NCBI GenBank assembly: GCA_019245575.1
Contig: JAFARE010000003.1
Location: 9,948-73,947, forward strand
DNA: 64,000 nt
Direction: 5' to 3'
Origin: Candidatus Dormiibacterota bacterium
GTDB taxonomy: Bacteria > Chloroflexota > Dormibacteria > Aeolococcales > Aeolococcaceae
The notes beneath the pieces were generated by a model. That model was not told the origin of the DNA. It worked only from the letters and a program-made list of their open reading frames with translations, and did not search any database. The number at the start of each line of letters is the position of its first letter. The first letter of the stretch is position 1. The translations under genes were made by a program, and so were the position numbers. Shown here one piece after another: positions 2,813-52,105 of the stretch.

Positions 2813-4722
2813 GCGCTCACCAGGGAGAGGCGCTGCTCCGCCGTCGCCTCCTCCTCGGGCGCCCAGTCCGGCGAGGCGAACTGAGGGCGGCCCCAGCAGA
2901 GGTCGGCGCGGCCAGCCTCGATCTGCGTGCGCGCGTCGTCGATGGTCAGCACGCCGCCGGCCATCGCCACCGGGACGCCCAGCTCGTTCCGGATCGCGTC
3001 GCAGAGGAGCAGCTGCTCGATGCCGGCCGCGTCACGCCGCGGGCTGACGGTCCGGGGTGACACGGTGACCAGGTCCAGACAGCCCTCCTGGCGCAGGGGT
3101 GCCAGCGCAGCGAGCACGGCCTCGGTGGTCCGCGTCCGCTTGTGGCTCTCCGGTGGCGCAGTGACGTGCGCTGCGAGCGGACGGGATTCCGGCCACCGGC
3201 GGCGAGCGTCCCGAAAGCGCTCGGATGTGGCCGGGTCGCCGGGATCGATGTGCACATCGAGCAGCTCGAACGCACCGTGCGCGGCGGCCCAGAACTCGTC
3301 GTCGAGGGCCAGCGCCTGCGCCACCGAGAGGCCCACCGCCTGTCCGCGCAGGTGCTGCTGCGCCTCCTGGACCGCCGCGCACCACTGACGCAGCTGCGCG
3401 CGGGACGTCACTGCGCTGCTCATCACCAGGCCCGCGCCCGCGAGTGCCATGGCGCCGATGGCGAATGCCGTCGAATCCGGAGCGGTCACGACGATCCGGT
3501 TCGCAAGGCTGAGGCCGCGCAGGTCGAGCGCATCGGTGGTGGGAAGCGTGCCGCTGCCGCGCGCGCCCGCCGGCGCAGTGGCCTCGTCGATGGCGCGGAC
3601 GAAGCGCCGGTCGCGCATGCGCAGGCTGTCGTGACTCACCATGCCGGTGCGCGTATGGAAATGGAACGCGAACCGCTCGGGACTGAGCTGCTGCAGACGC
3701 TGTCCAAAACGCTCCCACCACACGCGGCTCGGTTCGGCCACCTCCTGGATGTGCTCGATGCCCGGGCGCCGCGCTGCCTCGTAGGCCTCGAACGCCTCCG
3801 GAATGCTTGCGGCGCCTTCCAGACTCTGAGCCAGCGCGATCGCGTCCTCCATCGCCATCTTGGTCCCAGAGCCGACGGAGAAATGCGCGGTGTGGGCCGC
3901 GTCGCCGATCAGCACCGCGTTGCCGGCGCTCCAGCGCTGGTTGCGCACCGTGGGGAAGGCGAGCCACTTCGAGTTGTTCGCCAGGAGCTCGTGGTCGCCC
4001 AGCTCCTCGGCGAAGACCTTGCGGCAGTGCTCGATTGCGTTGGTGTCACTCTCGCCCGGAGCCAGGTCGCGCGGGTCGCATGCATCCAGACCGGCTCGCT
4101 GCCAGGTGTTCGCATCCGTCTCCACGATGAAGGTGCTCTGCCCGTCGGCAAACGGATACGCGTGCACGCCGAAGGCGCCGTGCTCCGTCTCGCGGAAGAT
4201 CATCGTGAGCGCGTCGAAGCGCTGCGTCGTGCCGAACCAGATGAACCGTGCCTCGCCGACGCTGATCGACGTGCCGAAGGCCTGCTCGTGCTGCTGGCGG
4301 CTCGAGCTCTGAGCGCCCTCGGCGATGACGACGACGTCGCAACCGTCGAGGTCGGCCGCCGATGCCTCTTGCTCAAAGTTGAGCTGCGCTCCGGCCGTAT
4401 CGGCGCGCTCCTGCAGCACCCGCAGCAGCTCGCTGCGCGCTATCGCCGAGAACCCGTGGCCGCCGCAGCGGAGACGCCGGCCGTGCACGCGCAGCTCGAT
4501 GTCGTCCCAGTGCACGGCGCACGACGTCATCGCCGCGCAGGTCTCGGGATCTCCGCGCGCGATGTACTCGAGCGTTCGCTCGGAGAAGACAACGCCGAAC
4601 CCGTACGTCGCACCCGGGGGGTTGCGGTCGTACACCGCGACGTCCGGAGGCCGCGGCTGCCTGCGCAGCAGTGTCGCCAGGAACAGGCCGGCGGGACCGC
4701 CACCGACGATGCCTATGCGCAC
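2809..4722 (-). CDS. salicylyl-CoA 5-hydroxylase-like bifunctional FAD monooxygenase / OYE-like oxidoreductase
   Basis: N-terminal FAD fold 'RIGIVGGGPAGLFLA' and 'LIGDAAHTAHFSVGSGTKMAMEDA', with a C-terminal TIM-barrel-like half. I chose the GTG at 4722 because GAGGAAG lies about 8 nt upstream. The track ORF extends to 4818 and would overlap the P450 gene. Confidence 0.75.
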   Translation of the reverse strand: MRIGIVGGGPAGLFLATLLRRQPRPPDVAVYDRNPPGATYGFGVVFSERTLEYIARGDPETCAAMTSCAVHWDDIELRVHGRRLRCGGHGFSAIARSELLRVLQERADTAGAQLNFEQEASAADLDGCDVVVIAEGAQSSSRQQHEQAFGTSISVGEARFIWFGTTQRFDALTMIFRETEHGAFGVHAYPFADGQSTFIVETDANTWQRAGLDACDPRDLAPGESDTNAIEHCRKVFAEELGDHELLANNSKWLAFPTVRNQRWSAGNAVLIGDAAHTAHFSVGSGTKMAMEDAIALAQSLEGAASIPEAFEAYEAARRPGIEHIQEVAEPSRVWWERFGQRLQQLSPERFAFHFHTRTGMVSHDSLRMRDRRFVRAIDEATAPAGARGSGTLPTTDALDLRGLSLANRIVVTAPDSTAFAIGAMALAGAGLVMSSAVTSRAQLRQWCAAVQEAQQHLRGQAVGLSVAQALALDDEFWAAAHGAFELLDVHIDPGDPATSERFRDARRRWPESRPLAAHVTAPPESHKRTRTTEAVLAALAPLRQEGCLDLVTVSPRTVSPRRDAAGIEQLLLCDAIRNELGVPVAMAGGVLTIDDARTQIEAGRADLCWGRPQFASPDWAPEEEATAEQRLSLVSA

Positions 4723-4771: not shown

Positions 4772-5974
4772 TCAGCCCCGGGTCGCCTCCCAGACGACGT
4801 CGAGGCGCTTCGGCCCACGCATCATCGCTGATTCCACGAATTCGATCTCGAATCCCTCGGCCAGGGCCAGCGATGGCAGCAGATCCATGAGCGCCTCCAG
4901 CGCCACGCGCGCCTCGAGCCGTCCGAGCGGCGCTCCCAGACAGTAGTGGCGGCCCGACCCCATCGCCAGGTGCTTGTCGACGACATCCGCCCGGTCCAGC
5001 GAGAAGGAATCGGGATCAGCCCACACGGTCTCATCGCGGTTGGCCGAGCCGATGCCCACCAGCACGCGCTGCCCCGGCTCGACCTTCACGCCATGGATGG
5101 CCGCTTCCGTGGTGCAGCGCCGCATCACCCACTGGATGGGGGAGTCGTGGCGCAGCGACTCGTCGATGGCCGTGGGTATGAGCGAGCGGTCCGCGGCCAC
5201 CCGCTCCCAGAGCTCACGCGTTCGCAGCAGCTCGTGGACCACGTTGCCGATCAGCCTGGTGGCGGTGTCGTTGCCGGCCACGATGAACTGGAAGATGGCC
5301 ATGCGGATCTCACCGTCGTCCAGCCGCGTGCCCTCCTCCTCGGCCTGCAGGAGCCGGGTGACGATGTCGTCCGGTGGCGATGGGTCGGCCCGCCGCTCCG
5401 CGATGAGGCGGTCGATGAACGCCTTGAAGTCCGCCCAGCTCTGGAGGTGGTGGAAGGAGCGAGGCACGGTCGAGGTGATCTCGGCGGTCCATCGGGTGAA
5501 GTCCGGAGCGTGCTCGGCGGGGACGCCGATGAGGTGGGCGATCACCTCGGACGGCAGCGGCTGGGCGAGAAAGGCCATCAGGTCGCCGCGGCCATCGGAC
5601 TGGACCTTCTCGACCAGCTGCCTGGCCGTCTCACGCACGAAGGGTTCCGCAGCGCGGACGGCGCGCGGGTTCAGGCCGGCCGCCACCAGGCGGCGGAAGA
5701 GGTTGTGCCGCGGAGGGTCGAGCTGGACGATCGTCGGCGGGTCGACCTCCCCGTCAGGGTGGTCGAGCTGGAAGTTGCCCGCATTGGAGAAGGTGTTGAA
5801 GTCGAGCAGCACCTGGCGGGCGTCCCCGTCGGTGGCGACGAAGAAGTGCCCGGGCAGCGCCTCGGACACCGGGCACCGCCGCCGGATCTCAGCGAGGCGG
5901 GCGTAGGGCTCGCGATACGAGGCGGGGTCGAGGGGGTTGAAGCAAAGGTCGCTCTCGCTTTCGACCGATGTCAC
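4772..5974 (-). CDS. cytochrome P450
   Basis: 400 aa with I-helix 'VAGNDTAT', ExxR 'ESLRH' and the heme-thiolate loop 'MGSGRHYCLGAPLG'. Confidence 0.9.
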   Translation of the reverse strand: MTSVESESDLCFNPLDPASYREPYARLAEIRRRCPVSEALPGHFFVATDGDARQVLLDFNTFSNAGNFQLDHPDGEVDPPTIVQLDPPRHNLFRRLVAAGLNPRAVRAAEPFVRETARQLVEKVQSDGRGDLMAFLAQPLPSEVIAHLIGVPAEHAPDFTRWTAEITSTVPRSFHHLQSWADFKAFIDRLIAERRADPSPPDDIVTRLLQAEEEGTRLDDGEIRMAIFQFIVAGNDTATRLIGNVVHELLRTRELWERVAADRSLIPTAIDESLRHDSPIQWVMRRCTTEAAIHGVKVEPGQRVLVGIGSANRDETVWADPDSFSLDRADVVDKHLAMGSGRHYCLGAPLGRLEARVALEALMDLLPSLALAEGFEIEFVESAMMRGPKRLDVVWEATRG

Positions 5975-7657: not shown

Positions 7658-8463
7658 CGATACGTCGTCACCGGCTTGAACCCCGCGCGTGAGTACAGAC
7701 GGCGCGCGGCTGCGTTCTCCGTGTCGACCTCGAGGCCGACGTCACGCACGCCGTGACGCGCCAGGAGATCGAGCGCGGCGCTCAGCATGCGCGCGCCGAC
7801 GCGGCGGCCCCGTACGCGCCGGTCGACCACGAAGCCGTAGATCATCCAGCGCCGCGATCCACGCACCAGGCGCGTGGTGCCGACGATCTCCTCACCCTCG
7901 AGCGCCACAAAGGTCTCGTGCAGCGGAGGCGCACCGATGGCGCTGCGTGGCTCGCCGAACCCGTCCGCGAGGATGTCGATCACGCGCTCGGTGTCAGCCG
8001 CCGTCGCCTCGCGCAGCAGCAGCCCAGTGTCGCTGTGGCGGCCGGCGCCGATGCGCATCCGCATGCGCAGCTCCGCATGGTCCTCGCTCGCGCCCAGCCG
8101 CCGCAGCCAGGCGAGCGCATGCGGTGCGGCGTCCTCGCAGATCACGAGCACGCTCTCGCGTCCCGCTGCGGCTACCATCTCGCACGCTTCCCGCAGCAGC
8201 GCGCTGCCGCATCCGGCGCCCCGCATGCGCGGATGGACCATGCCGCACACCTCGGCGTCGATGCCGAAGTCGACGCCGCAGTAGCCGTCGATCCGGCCGT
8301 CGACCCACGCGAGCACCGTGTCGGGGTGCCCGTCACTCCGCTCGTGGGCCGGCTCGAGCTTGAGGTCCAGGCTGTCGGCCGCCTCGCACTCGGCCTGCAG
8401 CTCGAGCACGCGATCCAGTGCGTCCCCGCTCAGACCCCTTCCGGTCGTGAGGTTCCAGGCCAT
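7624..8463 (-). CDS. tandem-GNAT N-acetyltransferase (mycothiol synthase MshD-like architecture)
   Basis: 279 aa with two acetyl-CoA motifs, 'RMRGAGCGSALL' and 'RVRGRRVGARML'. The 3' end overlaps the convergent gene by 34 nt. Confidence 0.7.
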   Translation of the reverse strand: MAWNLTTGRGLSGDALDRVLELQAECEAADSLDLKLEPAHERSDGHPDTVLAWVDGRIDGYCGVDFGIDAEVCGMVHPRMRGAGCGSALLREACEMVAAAGRESVLVICEDAAPHALAWLRRLGASEDHAELRMRMRIGAGRHSDTGLLLREATAADTERVIDILADGFGEPRSAIGAPPLHETFVALEGEEIVGTTRLVRGSRRWMIYGFVVDRRVRGRRVGARMLSAALDLLARHGVRDVGLEVDTENAAARRLYSRAGFKPVTTYRYMRLATVDRM

Positions 8464-9113
8464 CAGGAGGCCTGCGGCACCTCCTGATGCTCGAAACCGT
8501 CCACGCGCTCAGCCACGATGCGCAGCACGCGCGCACCCGTGCCCAGCTGGAAGTGCGACGCGTCCACCTCGACGAGCTCCGCAGGCGGGTCGCAGCACGC
8601 TTGCCAGTCGACCACGCGGTCGCGCTTGCTGTAGACCGACACGTACGGGATGTGCGCGGGAAACGGTGCGCCGAGCAGCGCGCGAACAGCCTCGGCGCAC
8701 TCGCCCTGAAGGCAATCCGTCCCCAGCACGCGGCGCACACCCCACGCGTTCAGCCGGCTCAGCATGCCGATCTGCATGCGGACCATCCTGCTCACGGCCA
8801 TGGGGTCGGCGTTGGGCCCACCCAGCGAGACGAGCGCGCTGACCAGGTCGGGGCGGCGCATCGTGACCAGCTTGCCCAGCGTGCCGCCGCGGCTCCAACC
8901 CACGACGACCGCGGGGCGCCCACAGGTGGCCTGCGACGCGCGCAAGCGCTGTTCCAGGCGATCCACCAGCTCCGTCGTGCAGCCGATGTTTATGCCAATG
9001 TGGGCAGCAACAATCGGATGACCACGCCGGCGGAGCGTCCGAGCCAATGGCAGCATGGTGTAGTCGCCGGCCCACAGCCCGGGAACCAGGAGCACCGGCG
9101 CTCGCCCGGTCAT
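8463..9113 (-). CDS. alpha/beta hydrolase (lipase-like)
   Basis: 'PVLLVPGLWAG' and the nucleophile elbow 'GWSRGG'. I chose the internal ATG at 9113, 4 nt after the upstream stop. Its stop overlaps the next start by 1 nt (TGATG). Confidence 0.6.
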   Translation of the reverse strand: MTGRAPVLLVPGLWAGDYTMLPLARTLRRRGHPIVAAHIGINIGCTTELVDRLEQRLRASQATCGRPAVVVGWSRGGTLGKLVTMRRPDLVSALVSLGGPNADPMAVSRMVRMQIGMLSRLNAWGVRRVLGTDCLQGECAEAVRALLGAPFPAHIPYVSVYSKRDRVVDWQACCDPPAELVEVDASHFQLGTGARVLRIVAERVDGFEHQEVPQAS

Positions 9114-31515: not shown

Positions 31516-31719
31516 AGCCTAGTCGCAGCCCCCTCGTGGCTGACCCACGATCGAGCGGCCGGCGGCGGACACGCGTTTACGGCCGGCGGCCTTCTCTTTA
31601 CCGGTGATCACAACTCTGTGCTGGCCAGCAGCTGGCACAGGCGACAGACTCGCCGCACAAGGGTTACGCAGAGCACCCGTTTTCAGGCGGGCTCTCAACT
31701 TCCCGGCGGGAGACTATCG

Positions 31720-32667
31720 ATGGGGCTCTTTAGACGAGTCGGCTATGCCGCGTTCGTGGTCGGTACTGGCGGAACTGGAGCTGTTGCCAAGTGGGCGGTC
31801 ATGGGTACGGAGGGGAGCCGCCAGCGTAAAAAGCTGATCAAGCTGCAGAAGGAGCAGAACCGCAGGCTTCAAACGATGCACCAACCAGGCCCCGTCGGCC
31901 TCGCGACGTCATTGGTGGAACCACCGCCTATGCAGACCTCGTACGCTGTTGCGACTCCCCAACGACCGCAAGCGACTCCTCCCGTACTTGCCCCGCGCCG
32001 TGAGTGGTCCGGCCAGCTGCCGCCGGGCAGTGCTCCACCACCCCCGCCTCCGCCACCGGACCCTTCGCGTAAGCCGCCCCGGATCAGTAGGCGCGTTTGG
32101 CTCGTAATCGGCGGGTTCACTGTGATCCTGATCGCGGGCGTATCTGCGCTGGCGGCAACCCGTCCCTCCGTCCAGCCGGCAAGTGCGGACCTTCCATCGT
32201 CTGCGCCCTCGACACAAGCGCCCGCGAACTCCGCTCCGACCGACAATTCGCAAGCTGCGCCTCAAACAGCGGCACCAACGGCTTCCGCCGCCGCGCCTCC
32301 CACTTCGGCTCCGACACCGGCTCCGACGCCGCCACCGACGCCGGCCGCGCCCACCCTGACGCCGCAGCAACAGAACGCAGCGCAGGCCGCCCAGCAGTAC
32401 CTGAGCATCCAGGGCTTTTCGCGGCAGGGACTCATTGACCAACTGTCGTCATCTGCCGGCGACGGCTACTCCGTCCCAGATGCGACTGTCGCTGTCGACA
32501 GCCTCAATGTGGACTGGAATGCCGAGGCCGTCCAGGCGGCCAAGAGCTATCTGGCGATGCAGCCTTTCTCATGCAATGGTCTGATCCAACAATTGGACTC
32601 GTCGGCCGGTGATCAGTTCACCGTTGCTCAAGCTACATACGGAGCACAGCATTCGGGAGCGTGCTAG
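31720..32667 (+). CDS. membrane-anchored Pro-rich protein with two C-terminal Ltp (host cell surface-exposed lipoprotein) repeats
   Basis: One TM helix ('VWLVIGGFTVILIAGVSALAA'), a long Pro/Ala/Thr linker, then two repeats: 'AAQAAQQYLSIQGFSRQGLIDQLSSSAGDGYSVPDATVAVDSLNVDW' and 'AVQAAKSYLAMQPFSCNGLIQQLDSSAGDQFTVAQATYGA'. Confidence 0.7.
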   Translation: MGLFRRVGYAAFVVGTGGTGAVAKWAVMGTEGSRQRKKLIKLQKEQNRRLQTMHQPGPVGLATSLVEPPPMQTSYAVATPQRPQATPPVLAPRREWSGQLPPGSAPPPPPPPPDPSRKPPRISRRVWLVIGGFTVILIAGVSALAATRPSVQPASADLPSSAPSTQAPANSAPTDNSQAAPQTAAPTASAAAPPTSAPTPAPTPPPTPAAPTLTPQQQNAAQAAQQYLSIQGFSRQGLIDQLSSSAGDGYSVPDATVAVDSLNVDWNAEAVQAAKSYLAMQPFSCNGLIQQLDSSAGDQFTVAQATYGAQHSGAC

Positions 32668-32956: not shown

Positions 32957-33196
32957 GTGCACGTGAAGATCGACGTCCGCGAGTTGAGAGATCGCATCAC
33001 CGAAGTGCTCGACGCTGTTGAGGCTCGCGAGCGCGTGATTCTGACGGTGCGCGGTCACCCTGTCGCGGACATCGTCCCGCACGCGCCGCGCGGTCGCTGG
33101 CTCCCGGGCGGCTGGCTGGCGGCAGAGCTGAGGGAGCGCGCGGCTGATCCCGCCCTGAGCCACGAGCTGGACGCGACCAACGCCATGCTGTCATGA
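32957..33196 (+). CDS. Phd/YefM-family antitoxin-like protein
   Basis: 79 aa with 'IDVRELRDRITEVLDAVEARERVILTVRGHPVADIVP', the Phd/YefM fold pattern, and a C-terminal tail like Phd-type VapB antitoxins. GTG start. Confidence 0.75.
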   Translation: MHVKIDVRELRDRITEVLDAVEARERVILTVRGHPVADIVPHAPRGRWLPGGWLAAELRERAADPALSHELDATNAMLS

Positions 33197-33819
33197 GACT
33201 TGCGCGATTCTGGTGGACGCTAATCGCCATCGACGTGGCGACCGGTGTCGTCATCAACTTCATCCTCGCGATCGTCGAACCGTCGCCCGCGGGACAGATC
33301 GGGACGAGCCTGCTTCGGTACTTCAGCTACTTCACCGAGGAGAGCAACATCTTCGTGCTGGCGGCGACGATCCCGCTGGCGATGGACCCGCAGCACGACG
33401 GGCGCGCGTGGCGTGTGCTTCGCGTCATGTCGCTGCTGGGCATCACGATCACCGGCCTCGTGTTCGCCATCGTGCTGGCACCGACGAGCCATCCTCACGG
33501 CGCTGGCGTGGCGTCGAACCTCATGCTGCACTACATCTCGCCGGTGGGCTCGATTGCCGGCTGGCTCCTCTTCGGGCCGCGGCCGCGCATCGCCCTCCGC
33601 ACGCTCGCGCAAGCGATCATCTGGCCACTGCTCTGGGTTGGGTACATCCTCGCGCAGGGTCCGGCGACGGGCTGGTACCCCTACGACTTCCTCAACGTGA
33701 CCGTGCACGGATACGGTCGGGTCGGCATCAACCTCGCCTTCATCCTCATCCTCAGTGTTGTGATCCTCGCGTTGCTGCGCCTGGGTGACCGCCTCCCCGC
33801 ATCGAGGGCCGCTGCATGA
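33193..33819 (+). CDS. 6-TM membrane protein, Pr6Pr / FAR-17a-AIG1-like
   Basis: The ATG overlaps the antitoxin stop (ATGA, 33193-33196). Six hydrophobic helices. 'YFSYFTEESNIFV' and 'LMLHYISP' resemble the family motifs. The family call is from memory. Confidence 0.6.
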   Translation: MRLARFWWTLIAIDVATGVVINFILAIVEPSPAGQIGTSLLRYFSYFTEESNIFVLAATIPLAMDPQHDGRAWRVLRVMSLLGITITGLVFAIVLAPTSHPHGAGVASNLMLHYISPVGSIAGWLLFGPRPRIALRTLAQAIIWPLLWVGYILAQGPATGWYPYDFLNVTVHGYGRVGINLAFILILSVVILALLRLGDRLPASRAAA

Positions 33820-34454
33820 GCACGCACATCGAAGAGTTCCACTTCGGCGCCGCCGTGTACACGGCGGACGGCAAGCACATCGGCTCCCTGCGCCGCCTCA
33901 TTGTCGACGGAGAGAGCTTCGATCTGCACGCGCTCGTGGTGAAGGAGACCAGGATGTTCTCGGGACACCACATCGCGGGGACCGGGCTCTTGGAGGACGA
34001 CATCGCCGTTCCGATTGCGGCCGTCTCCAGCGTCACGCATGAGCGCGTCGAGCTGTCGCTCTCAGCCGCCGAAGCGAGACGCACGGCACCCTACCTGACG
34101 TACCAGTACGCGCCCCTCTGCAGGGGCGATCTGGGCCGCATGGCTGTCGCGTTCGCCGGCCAGAGCGCCCACATGCCCAGGCTCATCGAACAGGCTGACA
34201 AGCGCGCGGACGAGCTCGAACTCAATCCAGGCGAGAACGTCATGCTCGGCAGGACCGGTCGCAAGCTCGGGACGGTCCGCGACCTCGTCATCGACGACGG
34301 TGAGCTCGTGGGCGTGGTCGTGCATCCTGAGGGATTCTTCAAGGACGACGTGCTCCTGCAGATCCGGTTCCTGGACCGCAGTGACGACCTCGCCCTCTTC
34401 GTGCACCTCACCGACGAGGATCTTCGGCACCTGCAGCCGTATCACCCGGAGTAG
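33816..34454 (+). CDS. double PRC-barrel domain protein
   Basis: The ATG overlaps the upstream stop (ATGA, 33816-33819). Two repeats of the PRC-barrel pattern: 'VYTADGKHIGSLRRLIVDGES..LHALVVK' and 'VMLGRTGRKLGTVRDLVIDDGELVGVVVH'. Confidence 0.7.
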   Translation: MSTHIEEFHFGAAVYTADGKHIGSLRRLIVDGESFDLHALVVKETRMFSGHHIAGTGLLEDDIAVPIAAVSSVTHERVELSLSAAEARRTAPYLTYQYAPLCRGDLGRMAVAFAGQSAHMPRLIEQADKRADELELNPGENVMLGRTGRKLGTVRDLVIDDGELVGVVVHPEGFFKDDVLLQIRFLDRSDDLALFVHLTDEDLRHLQPYHPE

Positions 34455-34476: not shown

Positions 34477-34827
34477 TCATCGCTGCGTCGCGGCTGCGAA
34501 CTCGTCGTATGCCGCCAGCGCGCGCGGGCCCCACACGGTCGCCGGTCCACCGTTGAGCAGCACCGCGACACCCATCGCCTCCGCCACCTGTTCGCGCGAG
34601 GCACCGCGTCGCACGGCGCCGCGCGCGTGCGCGGCGATGCAGCCGTCGCACTCCCGCGTCACCGCGATCGCCAGCCCGATCAGCTCCTTCATGCTCGCCG
34701 AGAGCGCGCCGTCCTTGACCACGGCCCGGTGCATGTCCGCGTATGCCGCCCACACCTCAGGAATCGCCTGACGCAGCTCCTGCACGGGGCCGCGCATCTC
34801 GTCGAGCGTCTGCTGAGACTGAGCCAT
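34477..34827 (-). CDS. carboxymuconolactone decarboxylase-family (AhpD-like) protein
   Basis: 'MKELIGLAIAVTRECDGCIAAHARGA', an AhpD-type CxxC. I chose the ATG at 34827 because GGAGGAGG lies about 5 nt upstream. The track ORF starts at 34848. Confidence 0.85.
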   Translation of the reverse strand: MAQSQQTLDEMRGPVQELRQAIPEVWAAYADMHRAVVKDGALSASMKELIGLAIAVTRECDGCIAAHARGAVRRGASREQVAEAMGVAVLLNGGPATVWGPRALAAYDEFAAATQR

Positions 34828-34896
34828 GTCGCCTCCTCCGGTGATCACCTGCGCCGTCGGTGCAGCGTGGCAGATCGACTCGGGGGGCGAAGCGGG

Positions 34897-35571
34897 CTAG
34901 GCGGTTTTCGGCACCAGCACCTCGACATTGTCGCCGTTGGCGCGCACCGTGATCGCCGGCAGCGGCGTGACCAGGTGCGAGTACGCGGTGCCCGAATGCG
35001 GCGTGCCGTCAAGGCTGAAGGTGGCGTAGTGGCACGGGCACACAAAGCGCTCACCGGCCGGGTCGGGGTTCAGGATGCAGCCCTGGTCGGTGCACACGGC
35101 CGACACCGCCTTGAGCTCACCGTTTGCCGCGTAGACGAAGCCGGGGATGCCCGCCGCCGTGAACGCGTGGATGCGCCCCGGCGTGAGCGCGGCGACCGTG
35201 GTCACCGCAACCCACTGGCCGTCGGTGGGCTGGATCGTGCCGCCCGACCCGCTGGGCTCGGTGAGCGCTTCACGCCAGTGCTCGATGCCGAAACCGGCGC
35301 CGATTCCCGCCGCCGCCGCAAGACCCGCGGCAGCCAGGAACCGCCGCCGCTGCGGCATGGGCACGGGTGCCTCTGTCTCCTGGTGCCGCAGCCGGCGGGC
35401 GAGCGAGTCCACAAACTCGGGCGACGGCTCTGCCGAACCCGGATGCGCGGCGTGCAGCGCCGCTGCCAGCTGCATCGCGGGCGCATCGTCTCCGGCTTCG
35501 CCCTCGGGGGGACGCCGGTCCTTGAGCAGCGCGTCGATGTAGCGCTGCAGCCTGCGATCGCGCTTGCTCAT
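34897..35571 (-). CDS. Tat-anchored Rieske-fold protein, putative anti-sigma partner
   Basis: Its start overlaps the sigma-factor stop (ATGA). About 75 aa of cytoplasmic N-terminus, then 'RRRFLAAAGLAAAAGIGAG' (Tat-like signal or anchor), then a Rieske fold 'CTDQGC...CPCH' in which the first His is replaced by Asp. Confidence 0.65.
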   Translation of the reverse strand: MSKRDRRLQRYIDALLKDRRPPEGEAGDDAPAMQLAAALHAAHPGSAEPSPEFVDSLARRLRHQETEAPVPMPQRRRFLAAAGLAAAAGIGAGFGIEHWREALTEPSGSGGTIQPTDGQWVAVTTVAALTPGRIHAFTAAGIPGFVYAANGELKAVSAVCTDQGCILNPDPAGERFVCPCHYATFSLDGTPHSGTAYSHLVTPLPAITVRANGDNVEVLVPKTA

Positions 35572-36098
35572 CGTGCGGGCACCTCCGCCACACCGGCAGC
35601 CCGGCGCAGCGCGCGCAGCTGCATCACCTTGGCGTTGTTCACGCTGATGCCCATGGCTCCGGCGGTCTCCTTTATCGAATAGCCACGCAGGAACCGCAGC
35701 TCCAGCACCTCACGGTAATGCGGCGGAAGCGTGGCGAGGACGGACTCGACGTCGACGCTCGTCGGCTCATCGGGGTGTGTCACGCTCAACGTCTCCTCGT
35801 CGAGCGCATCGGTGTACACGCCGTGGCGCTCGCGCCAGATGTCGGCCATGACGGTGCGTGCCGTGGCCCGCAGGTAGGCCCGCGTCTCAGCCTCGGACAC
35901 GCCGGGCCGGAGGTAGGGAAATGCTCGGACAAAGGTGCTCGACGTGACATCCTCGGCATCGGGCTTGTTGCCGGTTCGGGCATAGACATAGCGGTACAGC
36001 GGGGCGACGTGGGTGCGGTAGATCGCTTCCCAGTCCGCCGGCTCTGGGCCGGTGTCTTCTCCGACGACCCGCAGCGGCGGGGAGTCACCCACAGACAC
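35568..36098 (-). CDS. ECF (sigma-70 family) RNA polymerase sigma factor
   Basis: 176 aa with region 2 'YRTHVAPLYRYVYARTGNKPDAEDVTSSTFVRAF' and region 4 'LPPHYREVLELRFLRGYSIKETAGAMGISVNNAKVMQLRALR'. Confidence 0.85.
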   Translation of the reverse strand: MSVGDSPPLRVVGEDTGPEPADWEAIYRTHVAPLYRYVYARTGNKPDAEDVTSSTFVRAFPYLRPGVSEAETRAYLRATARTVMADIWRERHGVYTDALDEETLSVTHPDEPTSVDVESVLATLPPHYREVLELRFLRGYSIKETAGAMGISVNNAKVMQLRALRRAAGVAEVPAR

Positions 36099-36122
36099 GC
36101 TGCACTGTTGTACGCCGTCGGG

Positions 36123-36968
36123 TTACAGCGTGGCCGTGGGTACGGAGCCTCCCCAGACGGGCGGCGAGCCGCTGAGACGGCACTGGCCGGCCAGGTGACG
36201 CACCGGGAAGCGCCGATCCAGCTCGCGCGCCGGCAGCTGCACCAGCTCGTCGCGGTGCTCGATGGGGCACATGAGCAGGTGCGCGCGGCGCGACGCTGTG
36301 CACTCGATCTCCTCGCGGATGACGGCGCTCCAGCGCTCGTCCACCGCCGTCACGAGCGTCAGCGCGTCCTGCCAGATGCCCTCCCGCCAGGAGCGCGACA
36401 TGCGGGGCACGTCCCAGCTGGTGGCGAACACGCTGGAGAGGCCGCGACGGTCGGGCACCAGCACCTCGTCGAAACGCGCCACCAGGCACTGCAGGCTGTC
36501 GACCGTGTCGGTCACGGCGTCGAGCAGCTTGTCGAAGTCAGCCCGGCGACGAGCCAGCTGGGCCGCCGGGAGCGGCCACTCCGAGCGCAGCGCGTAGGCG
36601 AGCGCCTGGGGCAGGTCGTTGGTGAGATGCGCGCTCACGCCGAGCATGAGCGCCTCCGCCGCCTCGGTCGTCTGCGCCTGCGCGGCGCGGTGCGCCTCGG
36701 CCCAGGCGGGCGGGGTCACCAGGGTCAGGTCGTCGTCGCAGGCCTCCACCGTGACCAGGTAGTACTCGGCCCACTCCTCGACCAGATCGAGCACCCACCG
36801 GCTCTCGAGGTAGCGCCCGGCGCGGGCCACGGCGATTGCCGCGTCAAGCGCCATCGCGTGCGCGGCGGCGAAGTGCAGCCTGCGGTCACGCTGGACGCAC
36901 CAGCGGTCCACCACCGCCGCGAGGCGTCGCTGCGCCGGCGTGCGCGCGCCGTCGATGAAGCAGTCCAT
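36123..36968 (-). CDS. hypothetical protein (DUF5995-like)
   Basis: 281 aa, soluble and helical, with 'MLGVSAHLTNDLPQAL'. The family call is tentative. Coding is supported by position in the co-directional cluster. Confidence 0.5.
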   Translation of the reverse strand: MDCFIDGARTPAQRRLAAVVDRWCVQRDRRLHFAAAHAMALDAAIAVARAGRYLESRWVLDLVEEWAEYYLVTVEACDDDLTLVTPPAWAEAHRAAQAQTTEAAEALMLGVSAHLTNDLPQALAYALRSEWPLPAAQLARRRADFDKLLDAVTDTVDSLQCLVARFDEVLVPDRRGLSSVFATSWDVPRMSRSWREGIWQDALTLVTAVDERWSAVIREEIECTASRRAHLLMCPIEHRDELVQLPARELDRRFPVRHLAGQCRLSGSPPVWGGSVPTATL

Positions 36969-37039: not shown

Positions 37040-37705
37040 TCAATAGCCGGCGGGGAATGTGAACGGCTGGGGTGGGAAGTCCGTGCCGACATCGAGCTGG
37101 ATGAGCTCGTGCGGCGTCATCTGGATGGCGCGCGGATCGCCGGTGTGCTCCTGGCCGTTCACGTACACGATCACCGATCCGGTGGCCGGACCCACCTGTG
37201 ATGACGTGAGCGGCTGGCCCCAGATGTCGAAGAACTGGCCCAGCGTGTACACGGTCTGCGTGGGCGACTCGATGTGGATGATGCCGTCGTTGGTGTGCGT
37301 GTGCATCCAGTAGAAGCAGCCGCCGTGGTCGACATACGGGCCCTCATCGGTGGTGACCTCGACGCGCGGCTGCGTGATGCCGATCCCCTCGGGGAGCACG
37401 CGCTGCTGCCCGTTCACATACACCGCGAGGTGCGCATGGATGTGATAGACGACCTGTTCGTTGGTCTGGCACTGGATGCCGTCGACGGCGCTGCCGCTGG
37501 GATTCGCCGCCGCGGCAAGCAGGTTCTGCACCGTCGGCGTGGTCGTGGGAAAGGGCGTGGCATTCGGCGGGGTGGTGGAGGAGGATGTGCCGCCCCGAGC
37601 CAGCAGCAGGATCAGCACCACCGCCACGACGATGACGCCCGCGCCGATCCCGTTCCACAGCCAGCGCCGGCGCGAGCCGCCTCTAGTGTGGCCCAGGGCG
37701 CGCAT
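37040..37705 (-). CDS. membrane-anchored secreted protein with His-rich motifs (hypothetical)
   Basis: A TM helix 'WLWNGIGAGVIVVAVVLILLLA', then 'YHIHAHLAVYVNG' and 'GGCFYWMHTHTNDGIIHIE'. I chose the ATG at 37705. The track ORF extends to 37921 but would overlap the divergent hydrolase gene. Confidence 0.5.
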   Translation of the reverse strand: MRALGHTRGGSRRRWLWNGIGAGVIVVAVVLILLLARGGTSSSTTPPNATPFPTTTPTVQNLLAAAANPSGSAVDGIQCQTNEQVVYHIHAHLAVYVNGQQRVLPEGIGITQPRVEVTTDEGPYVDHGGCFYWMHTHTNDGIIHIESPTQTVYTLGQFFDIWGQPLTSSQVGPATGSVIVYVNGQEHTGDPRAIQMTPHELIQLDVGTDFPPQPFTFPAGY

Positions 37706-37872
37706 CGCCTCCTCGCGGCGACGCTCCCGCTTGCGGCGTGACGCCGAGCGCGGCGCGGCACGGGGCGGCGGGGCGGGCGCACCCCTCTTGCGCGGCGGAT
37801 TCGGCACGTCTGGGACTGATAGCACATTCCCGGAGCCGCTCAGCCGATGTGGCGTGTGGCGCGGGTACGCTG

Positions 37873-38937
37873 ATGATCGCGATGAGTGAGCGCACCACCG
37901 CCCGGCACCCGCTCTTGACACTGGCGTCGCGTGCCATCGACATGGCCGTGCTCGCGCGGCTCACCAGCGTGGAGGTGCTCAAGCCGCCGGTGATCGACCT
38001 GACCCCGGCCGACCCCGCCGCCTTCTGGCGCGAGAGCCGCGTCTCGTCGCCGGCGCCCGTGAGGATCGCGGACGAGTGGACGCCCCTCGAGGGCAGGGCC
38101 TGGCGGGCGATGGAGCTCGAGGGCGACAGTGACGGCCCGGGCACGCACGCCGGAAGCCGGCGCCTGCTGGCCACCGCTCACGTCCGGCGTGACGCGTCGC
38201 CGGCGCCGGTGGTGATCCTCGTGCACGGCTTCGCGATCCCGTTCACCGGCTTCGACCGCTGGCTGGCCTGGCGCATGCGCCGCCGCGGCGTGTCCACCGT
38301 GCGCATCGAGCTGCCCTATCACCTGCGCCGCACGGTTCCCGGCCACGAGAGCGGCGGCGGCTACTTCAGCATCGATCCCGCCCACACGCGCGCCGTGGTG
38401 CGTCAGTCAGTGGAGGACACGGCAGCGCTGGTGGCCTGGGCGCGAGCGCAGGTGAGTCCCCACGTCACCGTGGTGGGCACGAGCCTCGGCGGCCTGGTCA
38501 CGACGCTGCTGGCCGCCGTCACCGACCTCGACCGCGTGCTGGCGATCGCACCGCTGTGCGACCCGCCGTCGTCGTTCACGCAGCGGCCGCCTGGTGCGCT
38601 GCAGCGGCGCATGGGCATGCTCGGCGAGGGCGAGAGCTTCTGGGGCCGCGACCGGACGATCGCGCGCCAGGCGCTCGAGGGCGCGCTGGCGCCGCTGGTG
38701 CCGCGGCTGCTGGACCCGGTGACCCGAGGCGACCGCATCACGCTGGTTCGCCCGGACAACGACCTCATCGTCGGCGCCGCCCCGATCGACGAGCTGGCGG
38801 CCGCGTGGGGTACCGCGCTGTGGATCTATCCGCACGGACACATCACGGTGATGAACGCGCCGGGCATGAGCGAGCGCGTGGTCGCGTACGCAGTCGACGT
38901 CGACGCGCACGACGGCGACCTGCGCATGGCGGGGTGA
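37873..38937 (+). CDS. alpha/beta hydrolase
   Basis: 'PVVILVHGFAIPF' and the nucleophile elbow 'VVGTSLGG'. The start (ATG 37873 or 37882) is uncertain. Confidence 0.65.
   Translation: MIAMSERTTARHPLLTLASRAIDMAVLARLTSVEVLKPPVIDLTPADPAAFWRESRVSSPAPVRIADEWTPLEGRAWRAMELEGDSDGPGTHAGSRRLLATAHVRRDASPAPVVILVHGFAIPFTGFDRWLAWRMRRRGVSTVRIELPYHLRRTVPGHESGGGYFSIDPAHTRAVVRQSVEDTAALVAWARAQVSPHVTVVGTSLGGLVTTLLAAVTDLDRVLAIAPLCDPPSSFTQRPPGALQRRMGMLGEGESFWGRDRTIARQALEGALAPLVPRLLDPVTRGDRITLVRPDNDLIVGAAPIDELAAAWGTALWIYPHGHITVMNAPGMSERVVAYAVDVDAHDGDLRMAG

Positions 38938-50810: not shown

Positions 50811-52105
<1,295 letters not shown>

Follow-up and report, generated by a model that had tools for sequence, protein, structure and literature searches.

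Pairs of a sigma factor with extracytoplasmic function (ECF) and its anti-sigma factor are a major signalling route in bacteria, and to our knowledge neither the sensor domain nor the signal is known for most ECF groups. The zinc-binding (ZAS) anti-sigma factors of class I, among them RsrA, ChrR, and RslA, are partners encoded at position +1 that provide metal- and redox-responsive ECF control, and the anti-sigma activity of RsmA from Streptomyces coelicolor reportedly depends on a [2Fe-2S] cluster. RsbN from Streptomyces venezuelae, the partner of BldN, is a single-pass protein with three helices on flexible linkers that founded class III; its N-terminus has 117 amino acids (aa), its outer domain is of unknown type and has 272 aa, and it has been reported only in Streptomyces (PMC6101532). 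RsrR, a member of the Rrf2 family, is a [2Fe-2S] redox sensor with Rieske-like spectra (PMC5015018). Here we analyze a stretch of 64,000 nucleotides (nt) from a Candidatus Dormiibacterota bacterium (contig JAFARE010000003.1; the window, in whose coordinates all positions are given unless a locus is named), in which an ECF sigma gene is followed by a gene encoding a protein with a Rieske-fold domain. We consider it fairly probable that these two genes (35568-36098 and 34897-35571) encode an ECF sigma/anti-sigma pair, in which a single-pass anti-sigma factor inserted via twin-arginine translocation (Tat) would carry a Rieske-fold sensor with its metal site as input.

The Pfam family Rieske (PF00355) matched residues 119-196 of the 224-aa protein with 38.9 bits against a cut-off of 20.3, and in the AlphaFold2 (AF2) model residues 111-224 form a Rieske beta-sandwich with a predicted local distance difference test (pLDDT) score above 90. 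The nearest solved structures of this outer domain in a Foldseek search were b6f-type Rieske domains, such as 8hn2 and PetC3 (5cxm), with template modelling (TM) scores of 0.77 and 0.82, respectively, and expectation values (E) down to 8e-9. An initial annotation of this DNA had read the two Rieske boxes as C160-T-D162-Q-G-C165 and C178-P-C180-H181, correctly spaced and with the disulfide cysteines present, and the open reading frame (ORF) bears this out: the boxes are separated by 12 residues, and C160, C165, C178, and C180 are all the cysteines of the protein. Box II holds the usual C-x-x-H ligand pair, and the C-x-H pair of box I is missing its His, which is replaced by Asp. The Asp codon is GAC at positions 35086-35088 of the minus strand, as first read. 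Two features of high-potential Rieske proteins, the disulfide cysteine pair and a Tat signal-anchor motif, are present, and C165 and C180 are 96-100% conserved. A disulfide cysteine is lost in some members, with CTDQGA in the Asp-types P0028 and P0031 and CPAH instead of CPCH in the His-types P0063, P0068, P0071, P0080, and P0093, so the Rieske disulfide is not an absolute requirement in this family.

A search of 5.8 billion proteins yielded 104 clusters of homologues, which, where the source gives an organism, come from metagenome-assembled genomes of Candidatus Dormibacterota or 'Chloroflexi'; an identical architecture in about 100 homologous clusters is not due to chance. Motif counts were made from the 92 full-length members, represented by one sequence per cluster. 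Box I reads C-[TS]-D-[QM]-G in 52 and C-[TS]-H-Q-G in 40 of the 92, and box II is CPCH in nearly all of them, the few others having CPAH. A check proposed in the initial annotation, whether Asp is conserved in sigma-linked homologues, thus had a clear outcome: D162 was found in every representative of the Asp clade (52/52), and every H-type representative has His (40/40). Within the Asp group, C160, D162, C178, C180, and H181 are invariant despite pairwise identities down to 46%, and across the 52 representatives 23 of the 103 positions of the Rieske domain are invariant. With GAC a single nucleotide away from CAC, an error of sequencing or assembly might be suspected at Asp162, or decay of the gene to a pseudogene. 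However, GAC was found in every D-type locus read at the DNA level, that is, in six independently assembled loci (L001, L092, L093, L094, L095, and L085), the 52 clusters with Asp were drawn from NCBI, JGI, ENA, and Logan, and the ORF is intact and conserved at full length. Together, these observations exclude error or decay for practical purposes, and we give such an explanation a negligible probability.

The loci of the main Asp clade (the window, L001, L092, L093, L096, and L098) and those of the large His clade (L002, L005-L009, and L014) have a common flank, in which genes for a polyprenyl synthase, an Asp/Glu racemase, a GNAT acetyltransferase, and an alpha/beta hydrolase are followed by the sigma gene and the Rieske gene. 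Judged from this shared synteny, the D- and H-types are positional orthologues at one locus. Because the sister clade of positional orthologues has His, the ancestral site was presumably a canonical Cys2His2 Rieske [2Fe-2S] centre with a disulfide. The initial annotation had counted His in homologues as a point against its reading; His is indeed found in the sister clade, but it does not refute a genuine Asp site because Asp is fixed in the clade of the window.

The lineages bearing Asp were told apart by a neighbour-joining tree together with BLAST identities. The first is the main clade, possibly including P0073/P0091; the second is P0050/P0089, which is 72-75% identical to His-types and 54-60% identical to the main Asp clade; and the third is the distant P0143, with the box CTDVGC. 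Their separation in the tree and by identity implies at least three independent occurrences of the His/Asp switch. Seven amino acids can be reached from the His codons by one nucleotide change, and Asp was the outcome in every switch, while degenerate sites in the wider family show R, G, V, P, or A, never Asp. The fixation of Asp, the retention of the remaining ligands, and the restriction of the switches to Asp argue that Asp replaces His functionally and that the site remains in use.

The gene upstream encodes a 176-aa protein in which Pfam detected Sigma70_r2, Sigma70_r4_2, and Sigma70_ECF, and which matched TIGR02937 with 57.5 bits (cut-off 42.9). With the sigma2 and sigma4 domains only and a length within the range of about 170-200 aa, it has the features of ECF group 4. 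Its top NCBIfam families were BldN and SigE, all below cut-off, and the nearest solved sigma factor was BldN (6dxo_A, E = 1.3e-13), with SigE and SigL of mycobacteria ranking next. The sigma stop and the start of the Rieske gene overlap in an ATGA at 35568-35571, as the initial annotation had described for an ECF sigma gene. In 14 of 14 Dormibacterota loci a homologous ECF sigma gene lies directly upstream of the Rieske gene, mostly with a 4-nt overlap, and three more Asp sub-clades (L096 to L098) have the same arrangement, giving 17/17. The sigma gene is also immediately upstream in four of the five distant relatives that were looked up through the N-terminal domain, with E values of 1e-37 to 1e-44 against the window sigma; these four include P0170, which has no Rieske domain, and the ligand-degenerate P0113. 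The conservation of the sigma-Rieske adjacency, which the initial annotation had named as a check, was therefore borne out at both distances. The Dormibacterota loci returned by a genome scan were all His-type, and the same scan returned many actinobacterial Rieske loci without the N-terminal domain or an adjacent cognate sigma gene; a metagenome scan with a single-protein query yielded four loci.

The presumably cytoplasmic N-terminal part of the protein defines a wider family. Helices were predicted by AF2 at residues 3-16, 30-42, and 51-66, with pLDDT values of 60-70. A profile of residues 1-74 retrieved 274 representatives at an E of 1e-3 or better from a library of 1.84 billion sequences, and most of the full-length matches consist of the N-terminal domain, an RRxF motif, and a Rieske domain with canonical CTH[LMQ]GC...CPCH boxes. 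Several members (for example, P0170, P0190, and P0243) have an unrelated C-terminal domain, and these members showed weak matches to NCBIfam 'anti-sigma factor' models; P0170, the single case of a swapped, seemingly interchangeable outer domain that was looked up, lies beside a homologous sigma gene. It is thus the N-terminal domain, rather than the outer one, that the sigma gene accompanies, as would be expected if a sigma-binding module had sensors that can be exchanged. The layout is that of transmembrane ECF anti-sigma factors, with the gene at +1 to sigma, a cytoplasmic N-terminus, one transmembrane segment, and an outer domain. Cys is absent from residues 1-159, and there is hence no HxxxCxxC zinc motif, as the initial annotation had noted, so the protein is not a ZAS factor. 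That annotation had rested the anti-sigma role on gene order alone, a basis that is now superseded because the N-terminal module is conserved and, in P0170, is joined to another outer domain with a homologous sigma gene adjacent. On this evidence, we regard an anti-sigma role of the 34897-35571 product as likely. Many clusters of 71-aa and 86-aa proteins (P0289-P0340) also matched the N-terminal profile at 1e-14 to 1e-17; this set, from a large protein search with the profile, consisted only of short proteins or fragments without informative names, which could represent the putative sigma-binding module in a soluble, stand-alone form or could be gene fragments.

Between the N-terminal domain and the Rieske domain lies the twin-arginine motif that the initial annotation had placed at residues 75-89 (RRRFLAAAGLAAAAG) behind a long N-terminus, and it is indeed there, with RRRF at 75-78 and a 74-residue extension ahead of the RR. 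The sequence Q-R-R-R-F-L-A, followed by the AAAGLAAAAGIGAGFGI stretch, is consistent with the Tat consensus S/T-R-R-x-F-L-K and a moderately hydrophobic stretch. R75 and R76 are invariant, and in both the D and H clades F78 and L79 are above 90% conserved. Pfam Tat-signal models matched weakly, and UCR_Fe-S_N, the Rieske Tat signal, gave an E of 0.008, below cut-off.

Source databases name proteins of this family 'cytochrome b6-f / bc1 iron-sulfur subunit' (PetC, QcrA), 'nitrite reductase/ring-hydroxylating ferredoxin subunit', or 'Rieske protein', and these names suggest another explanation, namely an alternative Rieske electron carrier or a respiratory subunit under the control of sigma, whose gene only shares a transcript with that of its regulator and which has no anti-sigma role. 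The b6f-type Rieske domains as closest solved relatives and the combination of Tat anchor and disulfide, which is typical of respiratory Rieske proteins, fit such a carrier as well. Against it, in every locus for which genes were called, cytochrome b is missing from the Pfam annotations of those genes, and the NCBIfam models for b6f and bc1 subunits remained far under their cut-offs (PetC, 32 bits versus 154-250; QcrA, 16 versus 275; AioB also far below). An electron carrier would also leave unexplained the conserved 66-aa cytoplasmic extension, which in P0170 is fused to a non-Rieske domain beside a sigma factor of the same type, and the conserved 4-nt coupling to the sigma gene. We therefore consider this explanation improbable.

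Several results weigh against the sigma/anti-sigma pair with a metal-site sensor. No Pfam anti-sigma domain, zf-HC2 and RskA included, matched the N-terminal domain at E values up to 10, and its match to the NCBIfam 'anti-sigma factor' model NF052375 was weak (E = 2e-4) and far below cut-off. The AF2 model of the isolated N-terminal domain has a pLDDT of 65, and Foldseek found nothing below E = 0.7 for it in the PDB; searched against PDB sequences, the N-terminal profile gave chance matches only and no solved anti-sigma domain. Other points of this kind concern the metal site and lead to an explanation in which the sigma/anti-sigma pair is the same and the Asp-type Rieske fold is cluster-less, acting as a cofactor-free sensor or a protein-binding domain. 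NirD is a cluster-less protein of the Rieske fold, and in the protein studied here one His ligand is gone. In some members of the wider family the ligand set is clearly degenerate, as in CTHLGV..CPCR and CPCG, and these members keep the fold and the Tat motif, so that a Rieske fold can persist without the full ligand set; the ligand-degenerate P0113 still has the RR motif and also a sigma neighbour. In ARF, a Rieske ferredoxin from Sulfolobus, replacing the equivalent His of the first box with Cys abolished cluster assembly (PMC2946596).

A lost cluster is harder to reconcile with the conservation described above, in which the three remaining ligands are invariant and the disulfide cysteines are 96-100% conserved over 52 diverged representatives. 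Asp is moreover a metal-binding residue, and it appeared every time in at least three switches despite seven one-nucleotide options, while the degenerate members show an assortment of R, G, V, P, and A instead. We therefore think a cluster-less domain rather unlikely, and rate the retention of a metal centre in the Asp form at slightly better than even. If retained, the centre is probably a [2Fe-2S] cluster with Cys2-His-Asp ligation, for which the ligand change would imply an altered potential, pH-coupling, and lability.

The sigma/anti-sigma pair could operate as follows. The 224-aa protein is made in step with sigma by translational coupling, as the overlap of the two genes shows, and its N-terminus of about 66 aa, with three helices, would hold sigma at the membrane. 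By analogy with respiratory Rieske subunits, the internal twin-arginine motif and the Ala/Gly-rich helix would form a Tat signal-anchor, and the Rieske domain would thus fold and gain any cofactor in the cytoplasm before its placement outside. How stable the anti-sigma factor is, or which conformation it takes, could then depend on the state of the metal site, and the release of sigma would follow from this; the relevant state might be redox, cluster integrity, or cofactor insertion before Tat export and proofreading. Taken to its full extent, this would be an ECF anti-sigma family that senses the cell exterior via a Tat-exported Rieske domain, with one Dormibacterota lineage having a selected Cys2-His-Asp [2Fe-2S] site, and with sigma released by the redox state of the cluster, its loss, or its non-loading before Tat export; in this complete form the proposal is tentative and less likely than not. 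The features of the locus are listed in Table 1.

Table 1. Positions of the sigma and Rieske genes, the parts of the Rieske protein, and adjacent elements in the window.
Feature	Position	Strand	Remarks
ECF sigma factor gene, 176 aa, GTG start	35568..36098	-	ATGA shared by its stop and the start of the Rieske gene
Putative single-pass anti-sigma factor gene with Rieske-fold outer domain	34897..35571	-	224 aa, ATG start
Cytoplasmic N-terminal domain, residues 1-66, putative sigma-binding module	35374..35571	-	Three predicted helices, no Cys
Twin-arginine motif and Ala/Gly-rich hydrophobic stretch, residues 72-97, MPQRRRFLAAAGLAAAAGIGAGFGIE	35281..35358	-	Putative uncleaved Tat signal-anchor
Rieske-fold domain, residues 119-221	34909..35217	-	Pfam PF00355, AF2, Foldseek
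Box I, C160-T-D162-Q-G-C165	35077..35094	-	Asp replaces the first His ligand
Box II, C178-P-C180-H181	35029..35040	-	Invariant in the D clade
Tentative autoregulated promoter, GGCTCC-N16-TGTAAC, then CGTA	36111..36149	-	CGTA 12 nt before the sigma start; assignment uncertain
DUF5995 gene	36123..36968	-	Pfam; immediately upstream of sigma
AhpD/CMD-family gene with CxxC	34477..34848	-	Pfam CMD, NCBIfam AhpD core domain; 48 nt downstream

Upstream of the sigma gene, GTAAC-N7/8-CGTA is kept in both D- and H-type loci, and it occurs once in the window. A cleaner motif, T[CG]AT[GC]C-N16-CGTA[AC]C, is found in two copies per His-type locus, at 4431-4458 and 5717-5744 in L002 and at the same positions in L005-L009 and L014. 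The first copy precedes the sigma start by about 27 nt, and the second stands before an operon further downstream with genes for an 89-aa protein that has a Tat-like signal, for a DUF4331 protein, and for a protein of about 104 aa. In the Asp-type locus L098, TGATCC-N17-CGTA stands before the same DUF4331 operon (5699-5725). The two-copy motif looks like an autoregulated ECF promoter together with one target operon, which would be a candidate part of the regulon. GTAAC was also considered as a BldN-like -35 element and dropped because it lies only 7-8 nt from CGTA; T[CG]AT[GC]C as -35 and CGTA[AC]C as -10, separated by 16 nt, fit better. The version of the promoter before the sigma gene of the window is weaker than those of the His-type loci, and no DUF4331 homologue was found in the window. 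Elsewhere in the window there are two strict matches to the motif, a number at chance level; a motif site at 52030-52055 lies inside a gene on the opposite strand whose translation, read by itself, looks HemL-like.

The AhpD-like gene downstream is possibly co-transcribed with the Rieske gene. Outside the window it was found in L095 alone, which is 100% identical over all four genes compared, and a role as conserved partner, although it would fit a redox theme, was rejected because the gene is restricted to this lineage. Just downstream of it, and convergent, lies a gene for a PRC-barrel protein (33816-34454, plus strand), and the stretch made up of the AhpD-like gene, the PRC-barrel gene, and a gene for a 208-aa membrane protein was found elsewhere only in the metagenome contig L095, with 100% identity. 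The DUF5995 gene occupies the same position in L001, L092, L093, L096, and L098 of the main D clade and is absent from the H-type loci. Beyond it, 37040-37921 (minus strand) encodes a protein of 293 aa without a Pfam match. It combines an N-terminus rich in Arg with a hydrophobic segment and with a C-terminal part rich in His (YHIHAH ... WMHTHTNDGIIHIE) that hints at metal binding. In tblastn searches a homologue with 63-66% identity was present in L001, L092, and L093, between the hydrolase and DUF5995 genes, and none was found in the His-type or other loci searched.

Among distant family members, a Lipoprotein_15 (PF03640) gene adjoins the sigma/anti-sigma pair in three unrelated contexts (L091, 1937-2467; L097, 5675-6232; and L088, 1700-2209). 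In L097, a basal Asp-type, a gene for a Peptidase_M50 protein, from the site-2 protease family, is located about 2.5 kb from the pair (8152-9078), which could be a coincidence or a pointer to regulated intramembrane proteolysis. Beyond the locus, the plus strand of the window holds a small Phd/YefM antitoxin-like ORF slightly under the Pfam cut-off (32957-33196) and a gene whose product has a region rich in Pro as well as two Ltp lipoprotein repeats (31618-32667). No match to a plasmid origin was found.

In the literature we found no Rieske-domain anti-sigma factor, no Tat-exported Fe-S anti-sigma factor, and no natural Asp-ligated (Cys2-His-Asp) Rieske site, and Rieske is not mentioned in the main text of the ECF reclassification paper. 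The pairing may already be included in the supplements of that paper or in the ECF Hub under an unnamed 'putative anti-sigma' entry. What would be new is an unusual sensor and an unusual ligand set in an ECF sigma/anti-sigma pair, itself of a known kind. Sensing through an extracytoplasmic iron-sulfur domain would be an uncommon type of input, with redox, oxidants, the supply of iron or Fe-S, and quality control by Tat as candidate signals, and it would tie iron-sulfur status or extracytoplasmic redox directly to transcription. The recurrent change of His to Asp with the other three ligands kept offers a natural experiment on a carboxylate ligand in a Rieske centre, with the His-type orthologues at the same locus as built-in controls. 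The current database names probably misstate the role of these proteins and could distort reconstructions of respiratory chains for Dormibacterota.

Compared with described systems, the pair resembles RsbN-BldN (PDB 6DXO) in having the partner gene beside the sigma gene and, as predicted features here, a single-pass partner and a cytoplasmic N-terminus with three helices, and the window sigma is nearest to BldN both by structure match and by NCBIfam family. It differs in that its N-terminal domain has no sequence or Foldseek similarity to RsbN (6dxo chain B) and in that a Tat motif precedes the outer domain, which has a Rieske fold. The BldN promoter is CGTAAC-N16-CGTTGA (PMC2375139), and the candidate here is T[CG]AT[GC]C-N16-CGTA. 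With the soluble Rieske domain of Chlorobaculum tepidum (8HN2) and PetC3 of Synechocystis (5CXM) the outer domain shares the fold, the spacing of the boxes, CPCH, and the disulfide pair, and with these small membrane-anchored b6f-type Rieske proteins it shares a twin-arginine signal-anchor, putative here, ahead of the domain. Unlike the b6f-type proteins, the protein has Asp at a ligand position and a conserved cytoplasmic extension of 74 residues, and its gene is coupled to an ECF sigma gene without a cytochrome b partner.

The ZAS factors sense through an HxxxCxxC zinc site that is cytoplasmic and part of the sigma-binding domain, whereas here the metal-type site belongs to a separate extracytoplasmic domain and the N-terminus is free of Cys. 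RsmA would share with this protein an iron-sulfur cluster as anti-sigma input; it is a soluble cytoplasmic protein of kinase fold with a SigB-like partner, not an ECF, Rieske, or exported system. RsrR is a cytoplasmic DNA-binding repressor with another fold that takes its ligands from two subunits, but its cluster, which is said to have Cys/His/Glu ligation, would by this mixture of Cys, His, and carboxylate be the nearest chemical precedent for a Cys2-His-Asp site.

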